A stretch of DNA of 17,765 bases from an uncultured Eubacteriales bacterium (GTDB lineage: Bacteria > Bacillota > Clostridia > TANB77 > RGIG9151), in contig CAZVVZ010000012.1 of assembly GCA_964631135.1 (NCBI GenBank), forward strand, positions 1-17,765. Reading direction: 5' to 3'. Below are positions 1-17,165 of the stretch, piece by piece. The stretch's first letter is position 1. The number at the start of each line of letters is the position of its first letter. Both the position numbers and the translations under genes were made by a program. Below the pieces are notes generated by a model. It was not told the DNA's origin, searched no databases, and worked only from the letters and a program-made list of their open reading frames with translations.

Positions 1-92
1 CCCGTATTTTTTAAAGTCTTTCGTAGCAAATCCTGAGTTCCGATAAAACATATATATTATTTTTATATAGTAGCAGGCTGAATAGTAGCCAC
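1..92 (-). repeat. Partial copy (a) of the palindromic intergenic element, cut by the window edge. Only the left arm and loop are visible, in reverse orientation.
   Basis: The reverse complement of 1-82 reads TCAGCCTG-N19-ATATATGTTTTATCGGAACTCAGGATTTGCTACGAAAGACTTTAAAAAATACGGG. Its inner 55 nt match copy c (12785-12839) at 51/55 positions, including the loop AAAAAATACGG. The 19-nt spacing between TCAGxCT and ATATATG is the same as in copies b and c. The outer block ATAGTAGCCAC (82-92) recurs at 15757-15767. Confidence 0.8.
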
Positions 93-6128: not shown

Positions 6129-6974
6129 CTAAACTGCAACAGGCATAGAAATTTTACCTAAATGTTTATAATCTATCAGTTTAATATCTTTTAGCTCTTT
6201 AGAATTATCAAATGCAAAGAAATCATCTATCTCTTCATTAAGCCAAAGTTTCGGCGCAGGAAGTGCTTCGTCAATTCTTTTCATTTGCTCCTTAATTCCT
6301 TCAATTTGGTTCTCATAAATATGTGCATTATTTATTACATATGTAAATATTCCGGGCTTTAATCCGGTAACATGAGCAATTAAATGAATTAGCACCGCAT
6401 ACTGAGTAACATTAAACGGCATACCAAGCGGAACATCATTTGACCTTACATTAAGTAAGCAATTTAATTTCCCATCAGTAACGTCCCACTGTGTATTCCA
6501 AACACAAGAAGGGAGAGCTGCTGTAGCTAAAAATTCATTTTGCCATAAAGACATAACCATTCTTCTGTCATTAGGATTAGTTTTTAACGTATTGATTAAA
6601 TTCTGAGTAAGCTGATATTTATTAACAATCCACCCATATGCTGTACCAATAGTCCCTGCCCATTCTTTGCCAAAATTTTTGCCCATATACGTACCATCTT
6701 CACCAATTTCCCACTCGTTCCAAATTTTTACTCCTCTGTCTTTAAGCCAGCTAACATCATTACTTTGAGCTTGATAAATCCAAAGCAACTCCAAAACAGC
6801 ATGTTTAAAAGCAACTTGCTTAGTAGTTAAAATAGGAAATTCCTCAGATAAATCAAACTGTAAAATTTGATGAGGTAATTTATATGTCGCAATTCCAGTT
6901 CTATTTTGCACATACGTTCCTTCCGTTAAAATTTTATTGCACAAATCCAAATAAACTTTATCAAACTTAGACAT
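6129..6974 (-). CDS. thyA: Thymidylate synthase, B. subtilis ThyA / phage ThyP3-like subtype
   Basis: MSKFDKVY...[22 protein letters not shown]...RRMVMSLWQ...[10 protein letters not shown]...[16 protein letters not shown]...[17 protein letters not shown] aligns end to end with my recollection of B. subtilis ThyA. The start could be the ATG at 6974 or the one at 6980. I prefer 6974 from the GAAGGGAAG spacing and the N-terminal alignment. Confidence 0.9.
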
Positions 6975-7063: not shown

Positions 7064-7280
7064 AATTCCTCACAAAAAGTTACCATTCAGACTGCCGCCA
7101 CATAAAAAGAATATATATGTTTTATCGAAACTCAAAATTTACGGCGAAAAGCAAAAAATAAGGTGCATGCTTTATTGGAACTAAGTATTTGCAACGAAAG
7201 ATAAAAAAACAATCTAGAAAATCTTTCTGCAATTATTAGTTCCTTTTAAAGCATACACCTCATATTCTGTTCAGCACCAA
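7064..7280 (+). repeat. Composite copy (b) of the palindromic intergenic element: a degenerate left arm plus pseudo-loop, followed by a complete inner hairpin
   Basis: 7087-7163 (TCAGACT-N19-ATATATGTTTTATCGAAACTCAAAATTTACGGCGAAAAGC-AAAAAATAAGG) is colinear with the copy c left arm and loop. 7162-7259 is a full hairpin: GGTGCATGCTTTATTGGAACTAAGTATTTGCAACGAAAGAT / loop / ATCTTTCTGCAATTATTAGTTCCTTTTAAAGCATACACC. The left flank AAAAATTCCTCACAAAAAGTTACCAT resembles the copy c flank AAAACTCCTTAAACCGCTTACCGC. The right end CACCTCATATTCTGTTCAGCACC resembles 17097-17151 with an internal deletion. Confidence 0.75.
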
Positions 7281-7326: not shown

Positions 7327-7656
7327 TTACGTCATCAGTTCCAAAACCTTTTCCATCAGCACACTTCTAGTCTTTCTATTCTCAATCTTAATAAGTTCAG
7401 TTCTAATTCGGTTAAGATATTCCTCTCCATTAGAGGCAAGCCACGTTCTGAATAATCTTCCGTTCGAGTTAACTACATTCTCTTCCACTTTCTCCAACAG
7501 CATTCTAAGTTCAGCGCAATCTTCATTACCGTAAATCTCAATCAGTGTTATCGCTTCCTTCAGTGAGTAGAGTTGTTGAACCTTTTCAGGAAAGATGTTG
7601 TACTCGCACAAGCTGTCATCAAAATTCGTTCGATACTTGCAATTAAAAGTATCCAT
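7327..7656 (-). CDS. Hypothetical small protein (109 aa), predicted helical, family not recognised
   Basis: The ATG at 7656 is preceded by GGGAGGTTAGAGAT. The track start at 7719 is a GTG lying inside the predicted promoter. The gene has its own promoter, and a terminator hairpin lies directly upstream. I recognise no motifs (MDTFNCKYRTNFDDSLCEYNIF...). Confidence 0.55.
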   Translation of the reverse strand: MDTFNCKYRTNFDDSLCEYNIFPEKVQQLYSLKEAITLIEIYGNEDCAELRMLLEKVEENVVNSNGRLFRTWLASNGEEYLNRIRTELIKIENRKTRSVLMEKVLELMT

Positions 7657-7670
7657 ATCTCTAACCTCCC

Positions 7671-7735
7671 AAAAAAATAGTAGATTAACGTGTAATTTAC
7701 CAACATCAATATTATACACGATTTCTACTATTTTT
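7671..7735 (-). terminator. Long hairpin plus U-tract after ftsK (intrinsic terminator), ending immediately before the RBS of the orphan ORF
   Basis: There is a 12-bp perfect inverted repeat, AAAAATAGTAGA (7673-7684) / TCTACTATTTTT (7724-7735). An inner 8-bp stem, CGTGTAAT / ATTA(TA)CACG, carries a 2-nt bulge. On the minus strand the 3' arm runs into TTTTTTT and then GGGAGG. Confidence 0.5.
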
Positions 7736-10854: not shown

Positions 10855-12660
10855 TTAGTTATCGTCCAATTTTAGAATTGACATAAATGCTTCTTGAGGA
10901 ATTTCAACAGATCCTACCTGTCTCATTCTCTTTTTACCCTCTTTTTGCTTTTCAAGTAACTTCCTCTTTCTTGAAATATCTCCGCCATAGCACTTAGCTA
11001 AAACATCTTTTCTCATAGCACTAATAGTTTCTCTTGCTATAATTTTACCACCAATTGCAGCCTGAATCGGCACTTCAAAAAGCTGTCTCGGAATAACTTC
11101 CTTTAGCTTTTCCGCAATTTTTCTTCCTCTGGTATATGCCTTATCCTCATGAACAATAAAAGAAAGTGCATCAACTACTTCATTATTCAGTAAAATATCC
11201 AGTTTAACAAGTTTAGACTGCTTATAGCCTATTAGCTCGTAATCGAACGATGCATATCCCCTTGTCCGAGACTTTAATGCATCAAAGAAATCATAAATAA
11301 TCTCATTTAACGGCAATTCATATATTAAAGTTACTCTGTTATCATCTAAATACTGCATATTCATATATGTTCCACGTCTATCCTGACATAAATCCATTAT
11401 ATTGCCTACGAACTCCTTAGGAAGCATAATAGATGCCCTTACAATAGGCTCTTCCATAAAATCAACTTCTTGGGGAGGCGGTAAATTTGTAGGGTTAGAA
11501 ACCATAATTACTTCTCCGTCAGTCTTTGTAATTCTATAAATAACACTAGGAGCTGTAGTTATAAGATTTAAGTTGTACTCTCTTTCCAGCCTCTCTTGGA
11601 TTATCTCTAAATGTAAAAGTCCTAAAAAACCGCATCTAAATCCAAAACCCAATGCAATAGAAGTCTCAGGCTCAAAAAGTAAAGAAGCATCATTTAACTG
11701 CAACTTTTCTAAAGCCATCTTTAAATTCTCATAATCTGCTCCATCAACAGGGTACACTCCACAGAACACCATAGGTACAGCTTTCTTGTAACCTTCTAAA
11801 GGCTCGCTGGTCCTATTTTCAGCATTAGTTATAGTATCTCCGACTCTGGTATCCGAAACATTTTTCACACTAGCCGCAATATATCCAACCTGACCTGCTT
11901 GTAAACATTCCGACGGAATATAATTACCCGGTCTGAAATATCCAACTTCAGTAACCGTAAAAATTTTCCCTGTGGACATCATTAAAATAGTATCTCCGGC
12001 CTTTACGTTTCCTTCCATCAGACGTACATACGAAATTGCCCCTTTATAATTATCATAAAAAGAGTCAAAGATTAAAGCCTTTAATGGCTTATTTATATCC
12101 CCTTTTGGTGCCGGAACTTTATTTACAATTTCCTCTAGCACCTCTTCAACATTAAGACCTGACTTAGCAGAAATACGAGGCGCATCCATAGCTTCCAACC
12201 CTATAACGTCCTCTATCTCCTTTGCAACCTCATCAGGCCTTGCATTAGGTAAATCAACTTTATTTATAACCGGCAAAATTTCCAGATCATGTTCCAAAGC
12301 CAAATAAGTATTAGCCAAAGTTTGAGCTTCAACCCCTTGTGATGCATCAACAACTAAAATAGCACCTTCACAAGCGGCTAAGCTTCTTGATACCTCATAA
12401 TTAAAGTCAACATGGCCCGGAGTATCTATTAAATTAAGCTCGTAAGTATTGCCATCCTTTGCCTTATATAGCATCCTAACAGCCTGAGCTTTTATTGTAA
12501 TACCCCGCTCCCTCTCTATATCCATATTATCTAAAACTTGGGCTTCCATCTCCCTTTCAGACAGCACCCCGGTTAGCTCTAACATTCTATCCGCCAAAGT
12601 AGATTTACCGTGATCAATATGCGCAATAATACTAAAATTTCTAATCTTATCCTGCTCCAT
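10855..12660 (-). CDS. lepA: Elongation factor 4 (LepA)
   Basis: [23 protein letters not shown]...DTPGHVDF...NKVDL are the GTPase motifs, and the LepA-specific C-terminal domain is present (...[21 protein letters not shown]). The track start at 12675 is a TTG. The ATG at 12660 follows GAGGAGAGTTTTT. Confidence 0.95.
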
Positions 12661-12691
12661 AAAAACTCTCCTCAACCATTTTTTACTACAT

Positions 12692-12721: not shown

Positions 12722-12758
12722 TAGTCTAACCGTAAAAACTCCTTAAACCGCTTACCGC

Positions 12759-12905
12759 TCAGACTATTATTATATGAAAATAGTATATATGTTTTATCTG
12801 GACTCAGGATTTGCAACGAAAGACTTTAAAAAATACGGAAAGTCTTTCTGCAAATATTCGTTCCTTTTAAAGCATATATACTATTTTCATATAATAATAG
12901 TCTGA
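12759..12905 (+). repeat. Best-preserved copy (c) of the palindromic intergenic element (147 nt)
   Basis: Perfect 33-bp terminal inverted repeats: TCAGACTATTATTATATGAAAATAGTATATATG (12759-12791) and its exact reverse complement (12873-12905). The inner arms pair as TTTA/TAAA, GGA/TCC and TTTGCA/TGCAAA, with an AC bulge. The 10-bp apical stem GAAAGACTTT (12818-12827) / AAAGTCTTTC (12839-12848) encloses the loop AAAAAATACGG. Confidence 0.9.
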
Positions 12906-12973
12906 CTAATAATCTTAAACCCATTACCGACTAGTCCACTACATGCAATAATAATTATATAATTCCCCTTTAA

Positions 12974-15704: not shown

Positions 15705-15740
15705 GCAAAATATAAACTTTAAGTTGCCAATGAGTTACTG

Positions 15741-15767
15741 CTCAGGCTTCTGATATATAGTAGCCAC
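15741..15767. repeat. Solo end fragment (e) of the palindromic element family
   Basis: CAGGCT (15743-15748) and ATAGTAGCCAC (15757-15767) are exact matches to 74-79 and 82-92 at the outer end of copy a. They are on the same strand and differ only in the spacer (8 nt versus 2 nt). Confidence 0.5.
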
Positions 15768-15782
15768 CACTCAACCCTATTA

Positions 15783-15822
15783 CTAAAATAAAAACTTACG
15801 AACAGTCAAGTCCGTAAGTTTT
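15783..15822 (-). terminator. Rho-independent terminator after tRNA-Gly
   Basis: The minus strand reads AAAACTTACG-GACTTGACTGTT-CGTAAGTTTT followed by TATTTTAG. The stem is 10 bp (15791-15800 / 15813-15822). Confidence 0.65.
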
Positions 15823-15829
15823 ATTCAAA

Positions 15830-15903
15830 TGGAGCAGATGAGGGGAATCGGACCCCCACCGTAAGCTTGGGAAGCTCAAGTTCTACCACTAAACTACATC
15901 TGC
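15830..15903 (-). tRNA. tRNA-Gly (anticodon CCC), CCA encoded
   Basis: The reverse complement is GCAGATGTAGTTTAGTGGTAGAACTTGAGCTTCCCAAGCTTACGGTGGGGGTCCGATTCCCCTCATCTGCTCCA. It folds as a cloverleaf: 7-bp acceptor GCAGATG/CATCTGC, D-arm GTTT-AGTGGTA-GAAC, anticodon arm TGAGC-TTCCCAA-GCTTA, 4-nt variable loop, T-arm GGGGG-TCCGATT-CCCCT, discriminator U and CCA. Confidence 0.85.
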
Positions 15904-15909
15904 ATTTCA

Positions 15910-15943
15910 CAACTATTATTATATATCTTAAAAATAATAGTTG
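15910..15943. repeat. Mini-hairpin resembling abutted terminal repeats of the element family
   Basis: CAACTATTATT (15910-15920) and AATAATAGTTG (15933-15943) form a perfect 11-bp inverted repeat. ACTATTATTATAT (15912-15924) is identical to 12763-12775 inside the copy c terminal repeat. Confidence 0.45.
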
Positions 15944-17060: not shown

Positions 17061-17165
17061 TACTGTCTAGGTAATTTGTGCAGAAATTTTGTTTCCACCA
17101 TTATATTATTTCATATAGTCTGATTAGTAACCAAAATGTTGCTGTTCAGACTATATAAAAATTTC
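17061..17165 (+). repeat. Degenerate right half (d) of the element, then a 22-nt spacer, then a solo left end
   Basis: 17078-17123 (TGCAGAAATTTTGTTTCC...ATTTCATATAGTCTGA) parallels the copy c right arm (TGCAAATATTCGTTCC...ATTTTCATAT..AGTCTGA). ATATAGTCTGA (17113-17123) and TCAGACTATAT (17146-17156) form an 11-bp inverted repeat. TCAGACTATATAAAAAT resembles the start of the copy c left arm. Confidence 0.55.

Follow-up and report, generated by a model that had tools for sequence, protein, structure and literature searches.

A likely family of miniature inverted-repeat transposable elements between genes of an uncultured Clostridia species

In a 17,765-nt stretch of DNA from an uncultured Eubacteriales bacterium (GenBank assembly GCA_964631135.1, contig CAZVVZ010000012.1; the whole stretch is called the window below), a long palindrome lies upstream of lepA, and related sequence recurs in other intergenic gaps. 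Is it a mobile element, a structured RNA, a terminator or a recombination site? The initial annotation, made from the sequence alone, likened it to REPIN/BIME elements moved by RAYT transposases and named a MITE (miniature inverted-repeat transposable element) among the alternatives. Our analysis favors that alternative, which is supported by long terminal inverted repeats, by 8-bp duplications in two copies and by empty sites in relatives. The palindrome is likely one copy of a new non-coding MITE family of the ordinary kind, which a DDE-type transposase would move in trans. Known MITEs are small, lie between genes, fold as hairpins, are reduced by decay to truncated forms and differ in copy number among closely related taxa (PMC10969869, PMC3049150). 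The unit described here is small (163–164 bp), has no transposase gene, carries terminal inverted repeats and flanking duplications (the latter not recognisable for the copies termed B, C and D below), and occurs as dispersed copies, three of them at sites that are empty in relatives. Its spread among the intergenic regions of a single uncultured Clostridia species is recent.

Ends of the element and their flanking duplications

The palindrome upstream of lepA, which we term copy A, spans 147 nt (12759–12905) between the DUF1934 stop codon and the lepA promoter. Its exact 33-nt inverted repeats (12759–12791 and 12873–12905; TCAGACTATTATTATATGAAAATAGTATATATG) belong to 57-nt arms that are 84% complementary over their complete length, and at the apex a 10-bp stem (GAAAGACTTT/AAAGTCTTTC) closes around an 11-nt A-rich loop (AAAAAATACGG). 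Sequence and fold alike confirm the earlier description of a near-palindrome with 33-bp arms, bulged inner arms and a 10-bp apical stem. Folded as RNA, the plus strand reaches −71.6 kcal/mol, compared with −21.6 ± 3.5 for 200 shuffled sequences (z = −14.2; none of the 200 folded as well), and the minus strand folds at −68.3 kcal/mol. The actual unit exceeds the palindrome and runs from 12750 to 12913 (~164 bp). Its open reading frames (ORFs) are all short; for the longest, a spurious one of 43 aa, a search of a protein collection returned no homologue and no candidates for further copies.

The window's species turned up in metagenome assemblies only (relevant samples ERZ27279216, ERZ27279220, ERZ27279226 and ERZ27279234; runs SRR11880821, SRR11880823 and SRR11880843), and its LepA homologues carry the label of an uncultured Clostridia or Eubacteriales bacterium. 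We pieced together ~34 kb of the window's species from four overlapping metagenome contigs (L002, L013, L042 and L045; 99.5–99.8% identical to the window) and located copies with a covariance model of the 96-nt inner hairpin. These ~34 kb hold five core-bearing copies (A to E) and three solo ends, on both strands (Table 1). Copy E (L042:10727–10889, 163 bp) is a second complete copy, with the same boundaries as copy A. The terminal inverted repeats measure ~41 nt and consist of 8 nt (GTTACTAG/ATTATTAG), TCAGACT, 19 nt and ATATATG, and an asymmetric bulged hairpin of ~80 nt lies between them. Copy E thus reads GTTACTAG, TCAGACT, 19 nt, ATATATG, core, CATATAT, 19 nt, AGTCTGA and CTAATAAT, bracketed on both sides by ATAATTTG. 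Copy A reads from GCTTACCGC and TCAGACT to AGTCTGA and CTAATAAT, bracketed by CTTAAACC. The 33-nt arms of copy E are perfect and in part of other sequence than those of copy A, and its perfect 8-bp duplication is its own. By our estimate, the chance of an 8/8 flank match at fixed positions is ~5e-5 per copy in this AT-rich DNA. Thus, two unlinked copies with identical ends and different perfect 8-bp flanking repeats indicate transposition through staggered 8-bp cuts.

The boundaries of copy E also bear on copy A. A 16-nt imperfect direct repeat around copy A was considered as the duplication and rejected, since copy E shows that its first 8 nt are the duplication and that the remainder probably belongs to a neighbouring decayed end. 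The TTACC reported just 5′ of the left end is correctly placed, but this motif forms the outer tip of the terminal repeat and is not flanking DNA.

The end signature TTRCYNNTCAGNST occurs five times in the window, compared with 0.06 occurrences expected, and none of 200 shuffles reached five. Among the 41 loci compared, it is restricted to those of the window's species; an additional match, inside the plsY gene in L013, appears to be due to chance. The spacer of 19 nt that separates TCAGNCT from ATATATG, which had been called conserved, holds in copies A, B, C and E. The loop sequence, also called conserved, is shared by the closest copies only (A, B, D and E) and is different in C2, the second part of copy C, and in the cores of loci L009 and L014 from related species. 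The end module was also considered as a −35/−10 promoter pair on account of its fixed spacing. This was rejected on three grounds: TCAGNCT varies at its middle base, the solo ends do not face genes in need of a promoter, and real promoters can be seen elsewhere.

The two outer arms of any one copy are perfectly complementary to each other, but their sequence differs from copy to copy. We infer that complementarity is kept by intra-palindrome template switching, or quasipalindrome correction. The only within-element indel among 99.8%-identical strains is a 15-nt difference in the left arm of copy B (TCAGCCTGCTACTAT, window 75–89). These 15 nt, flanked by the 8-nt direct repeat GCTACTAT, are present in the window and L042 and not in L013, and the difference arose either by slippage that deleted them or by a template switch that lengthened the palindrome. 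Quasipalindrome template switching fits both the arm pattern and this indel (PMC7202029).

A mechanism can be proposed on this basis. A transposase encoded elsewhere in the genome, probably of the DDE type, would bind the terminal repeats, and the element would be inserted through 8-bp staggered cuts whose repair yields 8-bp direct repeats. The family has expanded in the window's species, mostly landing just 3′ of stop codons, in or beside intrinsic terminators. Transcripts crossing a copy would fold into a hairpin of ~60 bp that may influence termination or mRNA stability. The terminal repeats offer a specific probe for the cognate transposase, on an insertion sequence whose ends would begin GTTACTAGTCAGACT.

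Copies in the species and empty sites in its relatives

Table 1. Parts of copy A and other family members in the window and in overlapping contigs of the same species (positions refer to the window unless a contig is named)
Feature	Position	Strand	Description
Copy B, left half	1-89	-	Terminal repeat and core 5′ arm, truncated where the window begins; 89% identical to A over 80 nt
Copy C, first part (C1)	7079-7152	+	Left terminal repeat GTTACCAT-TCAGACT-19 nt-ATATATG, then left half-core
Copy C, second part (C2)	7163-7258	+	Complete diverged core without terminal repeats; 96 bits; 72-76% identical to other cores
Copy A, left target-site duplication	12742-12749	+	CTTAAACC; identical 8-mer at 12914-12921, directly outside both ends
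Copy A, left terminal inverted repeat	12750-12791	+	GCTTACCGC + TCAGACT + 19 nt + ATATATG; inner 33 nt complementary to 12873-12905
Copy A, core hairpin	12785-12879	+	Asymmetric, four stems; internal loop TCAGG/ATTC, bulges AC and TC/TTT
Copy A, right terminal inverted repeat	12873-12913	-	Ends CTAATAAT (ATTATTAG on the other strand); identical 8-mer at the right end of copy E
Copy A, right target-site duplication	12914-12921	+	CTTAAACC
Degenerate end-like sequence adjoining the insertion	12922-12955	+	CATTACCGACTAGTCCACTACATG...; resembles the left end GCTTACCGCTCAGACTATTATTATATG by direct reading; probably an older decayed element end
Solo terminal repeat	15734-15767	+	GTTACTGC-TCAGGCT...; no core
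Solo or decayed end	17090-17131	-	GTTACTAA-TCAGACT-ATATGAAATAATATAATGG; no core
Solo or decayed end	17138-17165	+	GTTGCTGT-TCAGACT-ATATAAAAAT; back to back with 17090-17131, 6 nt apart; no core
Copy D, core	L002:458-553		3′ of the flavodoxin gene, just past the window end
Copy E, core	L042:10761-10855		Between a histidine-kinase gene and rplM

The five copies and the solo ends bear out the view of a multi-copy, modular, intergenic and palindromic repeat present on both strands. Families of MITEs likewise contain a mix of intact, truncated and rearranged copies (PMC10969869, PMC3049150). The sites listed as related in the initial annotation prove to be of several kinds: 1–92 is a true copy (minus strand) and 7064–7280 a rearranged composite, and 15741–15767 and 17061–17165 are solo repeats without a core. 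The remaining site, 15910–15943, does not hold up. It is an independent small hairpin (CAACTATTATT...AATAATAGTTG) in the gap that separates the dehydrogenase gene from the tRNA. Its similarity to an arm of copy A is limited to a 13-nt AT-rich word (ACTATTATTATAT), and it is treated here as unrelated or as a tiny fragment, not as a copy. The covariance model scores ~105 bits in one orientation and ~35 in the other (104 versus 37 for copy A). Thus, the element has a definite polarity though it is nearly palindromic.

Assembly itself is affected by these repeats. The core of copy B, at 1–55 (−) in the window, is complete at L042:3864–3958, and the full copy (L042:3839–3985) is also found in L013. 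Contigs L003 and L005 stop inside copy A (window 12788–12791) and the window itself begins in the loop of copy B, as is expected for multi-copy palindromes in short-read assemblies. The element breaks metagenome contigs of this lineage, including the start of the window, and recognising it should aid the assembly and annotation of metagenome-assembled genomes (MAGs).

Three insertion sites, those of copies A, B and C, could be compared with relatives, and all three are empty there. The initial annotation had proposed a comparison of orthologous regions upstream of lepA and thyA, and empty sites were indeed found. The DUF1934–lepA gap, 313 bp with copy A, measures 34–35 bp in two relatives at 95% LepA identity (L014; L022/L023) and 101–108 bp in L015 and L025, where it contains a canonical terminator and the same lepA promoter. 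In L026, the closest relative found (83% SLH identity), the site 3′ of the SLH gene holds only a terminator, AAAAATTACCAC-AAAAA-GTGGTAATTTTTTTT; in the window's species it holds copy B, followed solely by the terminator's 3′ arm GTGGTAATTTTTTTT and its U-tract. The FtsK–thyA interval, which contains copy C here, has only a terminator in L026 and is a 58-bp gap in L014. The 109-aa ORF beside copy C is ancestral, since homologues occupy the same place, without the element, in L025 and L027. Copy C was also considered as a cassette with an attC site, a candidate that was rejected for the same reason.

No copy was found by the covariance model in the loci of relatives at 92% and 85% LepA identity, in L026 or in L027. 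The sister species with LepA P0002 has one decayed family copy (L009:4797–4920); this contig and the empty lepA site of L023 belong to a single MAG (GCA_964640345.1). This pattern of copies across relatives points to a family common to a narrow clade and expanded in the window's species. It would represent a recent, species-specific MITE burst in which intrinsic terminators were replaced or invaded, namely those upstream of lepA and of thyA and that downstream of the S-layer-homology (SLH) gene.

Database searches are in line with a narrow distribution. The Rfam search that had been suggested was run (Rfam 15, E<=1) and gave no match to any copy in the window, L009, L014, L022 or L027, returning only a tRNA and one weak unrelated match. 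BLAST against plasmids and phages found no match to the element. A pattern scan of 185,579 species genomes yielded one true match (L009) and three chance matches, a scan of JGI metagenomes two chance matches only, and three viral scans either nothing or chance matches that the covariance model rejected. Thus, the element is phylogenetically narrow, or poorly assembled in MAGs. With nothing alike in Rfam, plasmids, phages or viral contigs, the family appears to be undescribed; it leaves the current understanding of mobile elements unchanged.

Several observations weigh against a MITE family. Clean duplications flank two of the five copies (A and E), and the ends of B, C and D are degenerate, duplicated, partly deleted or rearranged. 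The copy number is an extrapolation from ~34 kb of the species. No transposase, and no autonomous element sharing these ends, was found in these ~34 kb or in the relatives' loci. In comparisons of 99.8%-identical strains, no whole copy was polymorphic for presence or absence, which leaves current activity without support. Finally, the core covaries with a homologue that has no terminal repeats, as described below, and simple selfish spread does not require this.

The strain differences found were the copy B indel and the replacement, in some strains, of most of copy D beside a tRNA/integrase island. At this site 3′ of the flavodoxin gene (L001:1–4845, L004:1–480, L045:1–7650), some strains carry copy D and ~300 nt of other DNA, and others carry a 176-aa integrase fragment. 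Both versions adjoin a tRNA (anticodon CCA) and a 416-aa tyrosine integrase, and the island breakpoint lies inside the left terminal repeat of D, directly after ACTAATAAGATA.

The inner hairpin and competing explanations

Cores within the species are 72–96% identical, so similar that their shared bulges need no special explanation. A distant homologue of the core directly follows the stop codon of a Bax1-I family (PF01027) membrane-protein gene in L014; L022 has it at the orthologous site. It is 50–62% identical to the cores here and has the same architecture. Stems ATTTGC/GCAAAT and GAAAGAC/GTCTTTC of the present cores correspond to ATTCAC/GTGAAT and GGAAACC/GGTTTCC in the homologue, and the unpaired TCAGG, ATTC, AC and TTT are identical. 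Across six sequences, double compensatory changes occur at 14 of 34 pairs, with 94% of cells paired; none of 500 shuffles, and no slid register, came close. RNAalifold reports compensatory changes at 18 of 42 pairs. The homologue itself has no recognisable transposon ends: its perfect outer arms (51–59 nt) are of unrelated sequence and are followed by TTTTTT. The forward strand folds slightly better in six of seven copies, with 12 versus 4 G-U pairs.

The two orthologues can also be compared with each other. They differ by three substitutions in ~200 nt, all of which preserve pairing (one compensatory pair and one change from G-T to A-T), and the flanking genes are 92–93% identical. Depending on the interval compared, L014 and L022 are 93 to 98.7% identical, so this conservation is not a strong argument. 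In addition, L022 has an exact 88-nt insertion at the AC bulge (L022:146–233; cf. L014:771–772) that folds as two additional hairpins, is missing from L014 and is unique among the sequences compared. These few sequences provide moderate evidence that the hairpin may have been maintained for a long time, and the resident L014/L022 hairpin sits at a terminator position and looks to be under purifying selection. It is possible, though we think it unlikely, that the structured core of the MITE, a homologue of the resident hairpin 3′ of the Bax1-I gene, is a module with a function of its own, whether in RNA or in single-stranded DNA that folds. Under the same doubtful proposal, the transposon would have captured, or evolved from, a protein-binding structured element and would be spreading a mobile regulatory module. 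The covarying core offers a test for selection on structures borne by MITEs.

A further explanation places function first: the inner hairpin would be a structured RNA or a single-stranded DNA ligand of a protein, copies would be kept for that function, and mobility would be secondary or absent. The stem covariation, the unpaired positions kept in the distant L014 homologue, the polarity, the better forward fold and the pairing-preserving substitutions all speak in its favor, as does the two-hairpin insertion exactly at a bulge, which is typical of RNA. Yet the copies lie in both orientations relative to transcription (A and C2 antisense, E in a divergent promoter region), transposition is shown by the terminal repeats and the duplications, and copies within the species, at 84–96% identity, need no selection to explain their shared bulges. 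The covariation, moreover, comes mainly from two divergent sequences, the L014/L022 conservation is weak and Rfam holds no match. We regard this function-first explanation as quite unlikely. A purely local origin, in which overgrown intrinsic terminators or palindromes were spread by duplication, template switching or recombination instead of transposition, would suit the placement of the copies. Six of the eight located cores (five here, three in sister species) begin 1–70 nt past a stop codon, copy B has taken the place of a terminator's 5′ arm, TTTTTT follows the L014/L022 homologue, and unrelated long palindromes occupy terminator positions in relatives (L027:11443–11669, L014:6739–6802). 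The copy B indel, which extends one arm in one strain, also fits quasipalindrome template switching (PMC7202029). But local processes leave unexplained how identical boundaries came to be flanked by different 8-bp duplications at unlinked sites, copy E lies in a divergent promoter region, and A-type copies are without a proper U-tract, all of which makes such an origin improbable.

The ends also speak against the reading preferred in the initial annotation, that of a REPIN/BIME-like element or, more widely, an IS200/IS605-type PATE, moved as single-stranded DNA by a Y1 (HUH) transposase such as RAYT that targets TTAC. REP units are imperfect 20- to 40-nt palindromes with a conserved GTAG-type tetranucleotide at the 5′ end, moved without duplications by a Y1 transposase whose gene is flanked by REPs; a PATE inserts 3′ of a fixed tetranucleotide. 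Like REP/REPIN–RAYT and BIME systems, the element is modular and forms hairpins, has short repeated units in inverted, hairpin-forming pairs (as at 17109–17160) and builds extragenic mosaics, and TTAC lies near the left end of several copies. Unlike them, it has no GTAG-type palindromic unit, its repeated end unit (GTTACTAG-TCAGACT...) not being a palindrome itself, and its perfect 8-bp duplications and ~41-nt terminal repeats do not fit duplication-free Y1 mobility. To our knowledge, Y1 transposition of IS200/IS605 and RAYT leaves no target-site duplication, and the elements have no terminal inverted repeats. The TTAC lies inside the element, apart from the duplication, and there is a single large hairpin, not the separate left and right subterminal hairpins of a PATE. 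No Y1 transposase gene (Y1_Tnp, PF01797-type) was present in the gene lists of the loci compared. Because target-site duplications are present, a REPIN/RAYT or PATE origin is very improbable. We give even less credence to attC-like folded recombination sites or tyrosine-recombinase attachment sites, suggested by a bulged imperfect palindrome of attC-like size and by copy D, which abuts the strain-variable integrase island next to a tRNA with the breakpoint in its terminal repeat. Inspection of the alignment revealed no R′/R′′ GTTRRRY (RYYYAAC/GTTRRRY) boxes, neither a cassette array nor IntI is present, the copies lie in mixed orientation beside housekeeping genes (lepA, thyA) and the SLH gene, and only one of the five touches an island.

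It is useful to set the proposed MITE family beside known bacterial repeats. Bacterial MITEs, including the Correia elements of Neisseria and the RUP elements of Streptococcus pneumoniae, serve as the comparison set (PMC10969869, PMC3049150). Elements of this type are also non-coding units of 100–200 bp with terminal inverted repeats, duplications, many intergenic copies and a whole-length hairpin, and they too have truncated or rearranged copies and copy numbers that differ sharply between close species. They share no sequence similarity with the present element, which has an 8-bp duplication, unusually long repeats of ~41 nt and an uncultured Clostridia host. Correia and RUP elements duplicate TA. 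The ERIC/IRU elements, 127-bp imperfect palindromes of enterobacteria (PMC10969869), are alike in size, polarity, intergenic transcribed location and variable copy number among related taxa; they belong to an unrelated taxon and sequence, and duplications and terminal repeats are clear in the element here. The SPRITE and BOX repeats of S. pneumoniae (PMC3049150) are likewise AT-rich Firmicute repeats enriched near gene 3′ ends, SPRITE having a terminator-like long hairpin and BOX a modular composition with lone modules. SPRITE differs in having only AAAA/TTTT ends and no demonstrated duplication. Compared with both, the element here has long terminal repeats and an 8-bp duplication, and most of its copies are without a proper U-tract.

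Gene neighbourhood and other features of the region

Most copies lie just 3′ of stop codons, in or beside intrinsic terminators. That all copies lie 3′ of genes was also considered, a claim weakened by copy E in its divergent promoter region. The same gene-3′-end bias is known for MITEs and pneumococcal repeats, where it is ascribed to insertion tolerance, with a possible terminator function for SPRITE (PMC3049150). Relative to the flanking gene, copies B and D and the cores of L009 and L014/L022 are in sense orientation, opposite to A and C2. A T6 run follows only the L014/L022 homologue, although six of the eight cores are at a terminator-like position. Copy A has no canonical U-tract, and a terminator scan shows no terminator-like site there, which for this copy bears out the earlier statement that no U-tract would make the repeat a terminator. 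The earlier view that it has no CRISPR-like pattern holds as well. Transcripts across a copy would contain a very stable hairpin, for which we claim no terminator function. In the rplM–rpsI operon's promoter region, the 60-bp hairpin of copy E could alter expression.

The window encodes two SLH-domain proteins, OadA, DHFR, ThyA, a small ORF, FtsK, a SpoU methylase, LepA, DUF1934, FlgM, a ComF-like protein, FBA, a tRNA, a 2-hydroxyacid dehydrogenase and a flavodoxin. The start codon of lepA is the ATG at 12660, which a GAGGAG ribosome-binding site precedes, and not the TTG of the listed ORF 10855–12675 (−). The small ORF after ftsK (listed as 7327–7719, −) probably encodes 109 aa beginning MDTFNCKY, as called in L002. 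The tRNA gene at 15833–15903 (−; Rfam 63 bits; anticodon loop CCC, indicating Gly) has a canonical terminator after it, at ~15785–15825, with a solo element end just past that.

Other palindromes were seen at terminators of the clade. At the site orthologous to that of copy B, 3′ of the SLH gene, L027:11443–11669, from a more distant relative, holds an unrelated palindrome of ~230 nt with a basal stem of ~45 bp and a branched top. It folds at −120 kcal/mol (z = −14.5), and a decayed form of the terminator of this site lies downstream of it. In this clade, one and the same terminator site seems to have been invaded repeatedly, by different long palindromes. Upstream of fba, the terminator of L014 contains a perfect 64-nt zero-spacer palindrome (6739–6802), and that of L022 a much shorter hairpin with the same outer arms (6195–6240). 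Between the two, the inner part has been swapped for a new perfect palindrome; a weak, sub-threshold Rfam match to rli51 (E = 0.053) was recorded.

Gene content also varies among the relatives. In the two species at 95% LepA identity, a gene for an N6/N4 DNA methyltransferase separates oadA from the SLH genes (L014:17753–18691, L022:16826–17767), and in L027 (5083–5754) thyX (Thy1) replaces thyA–folA.

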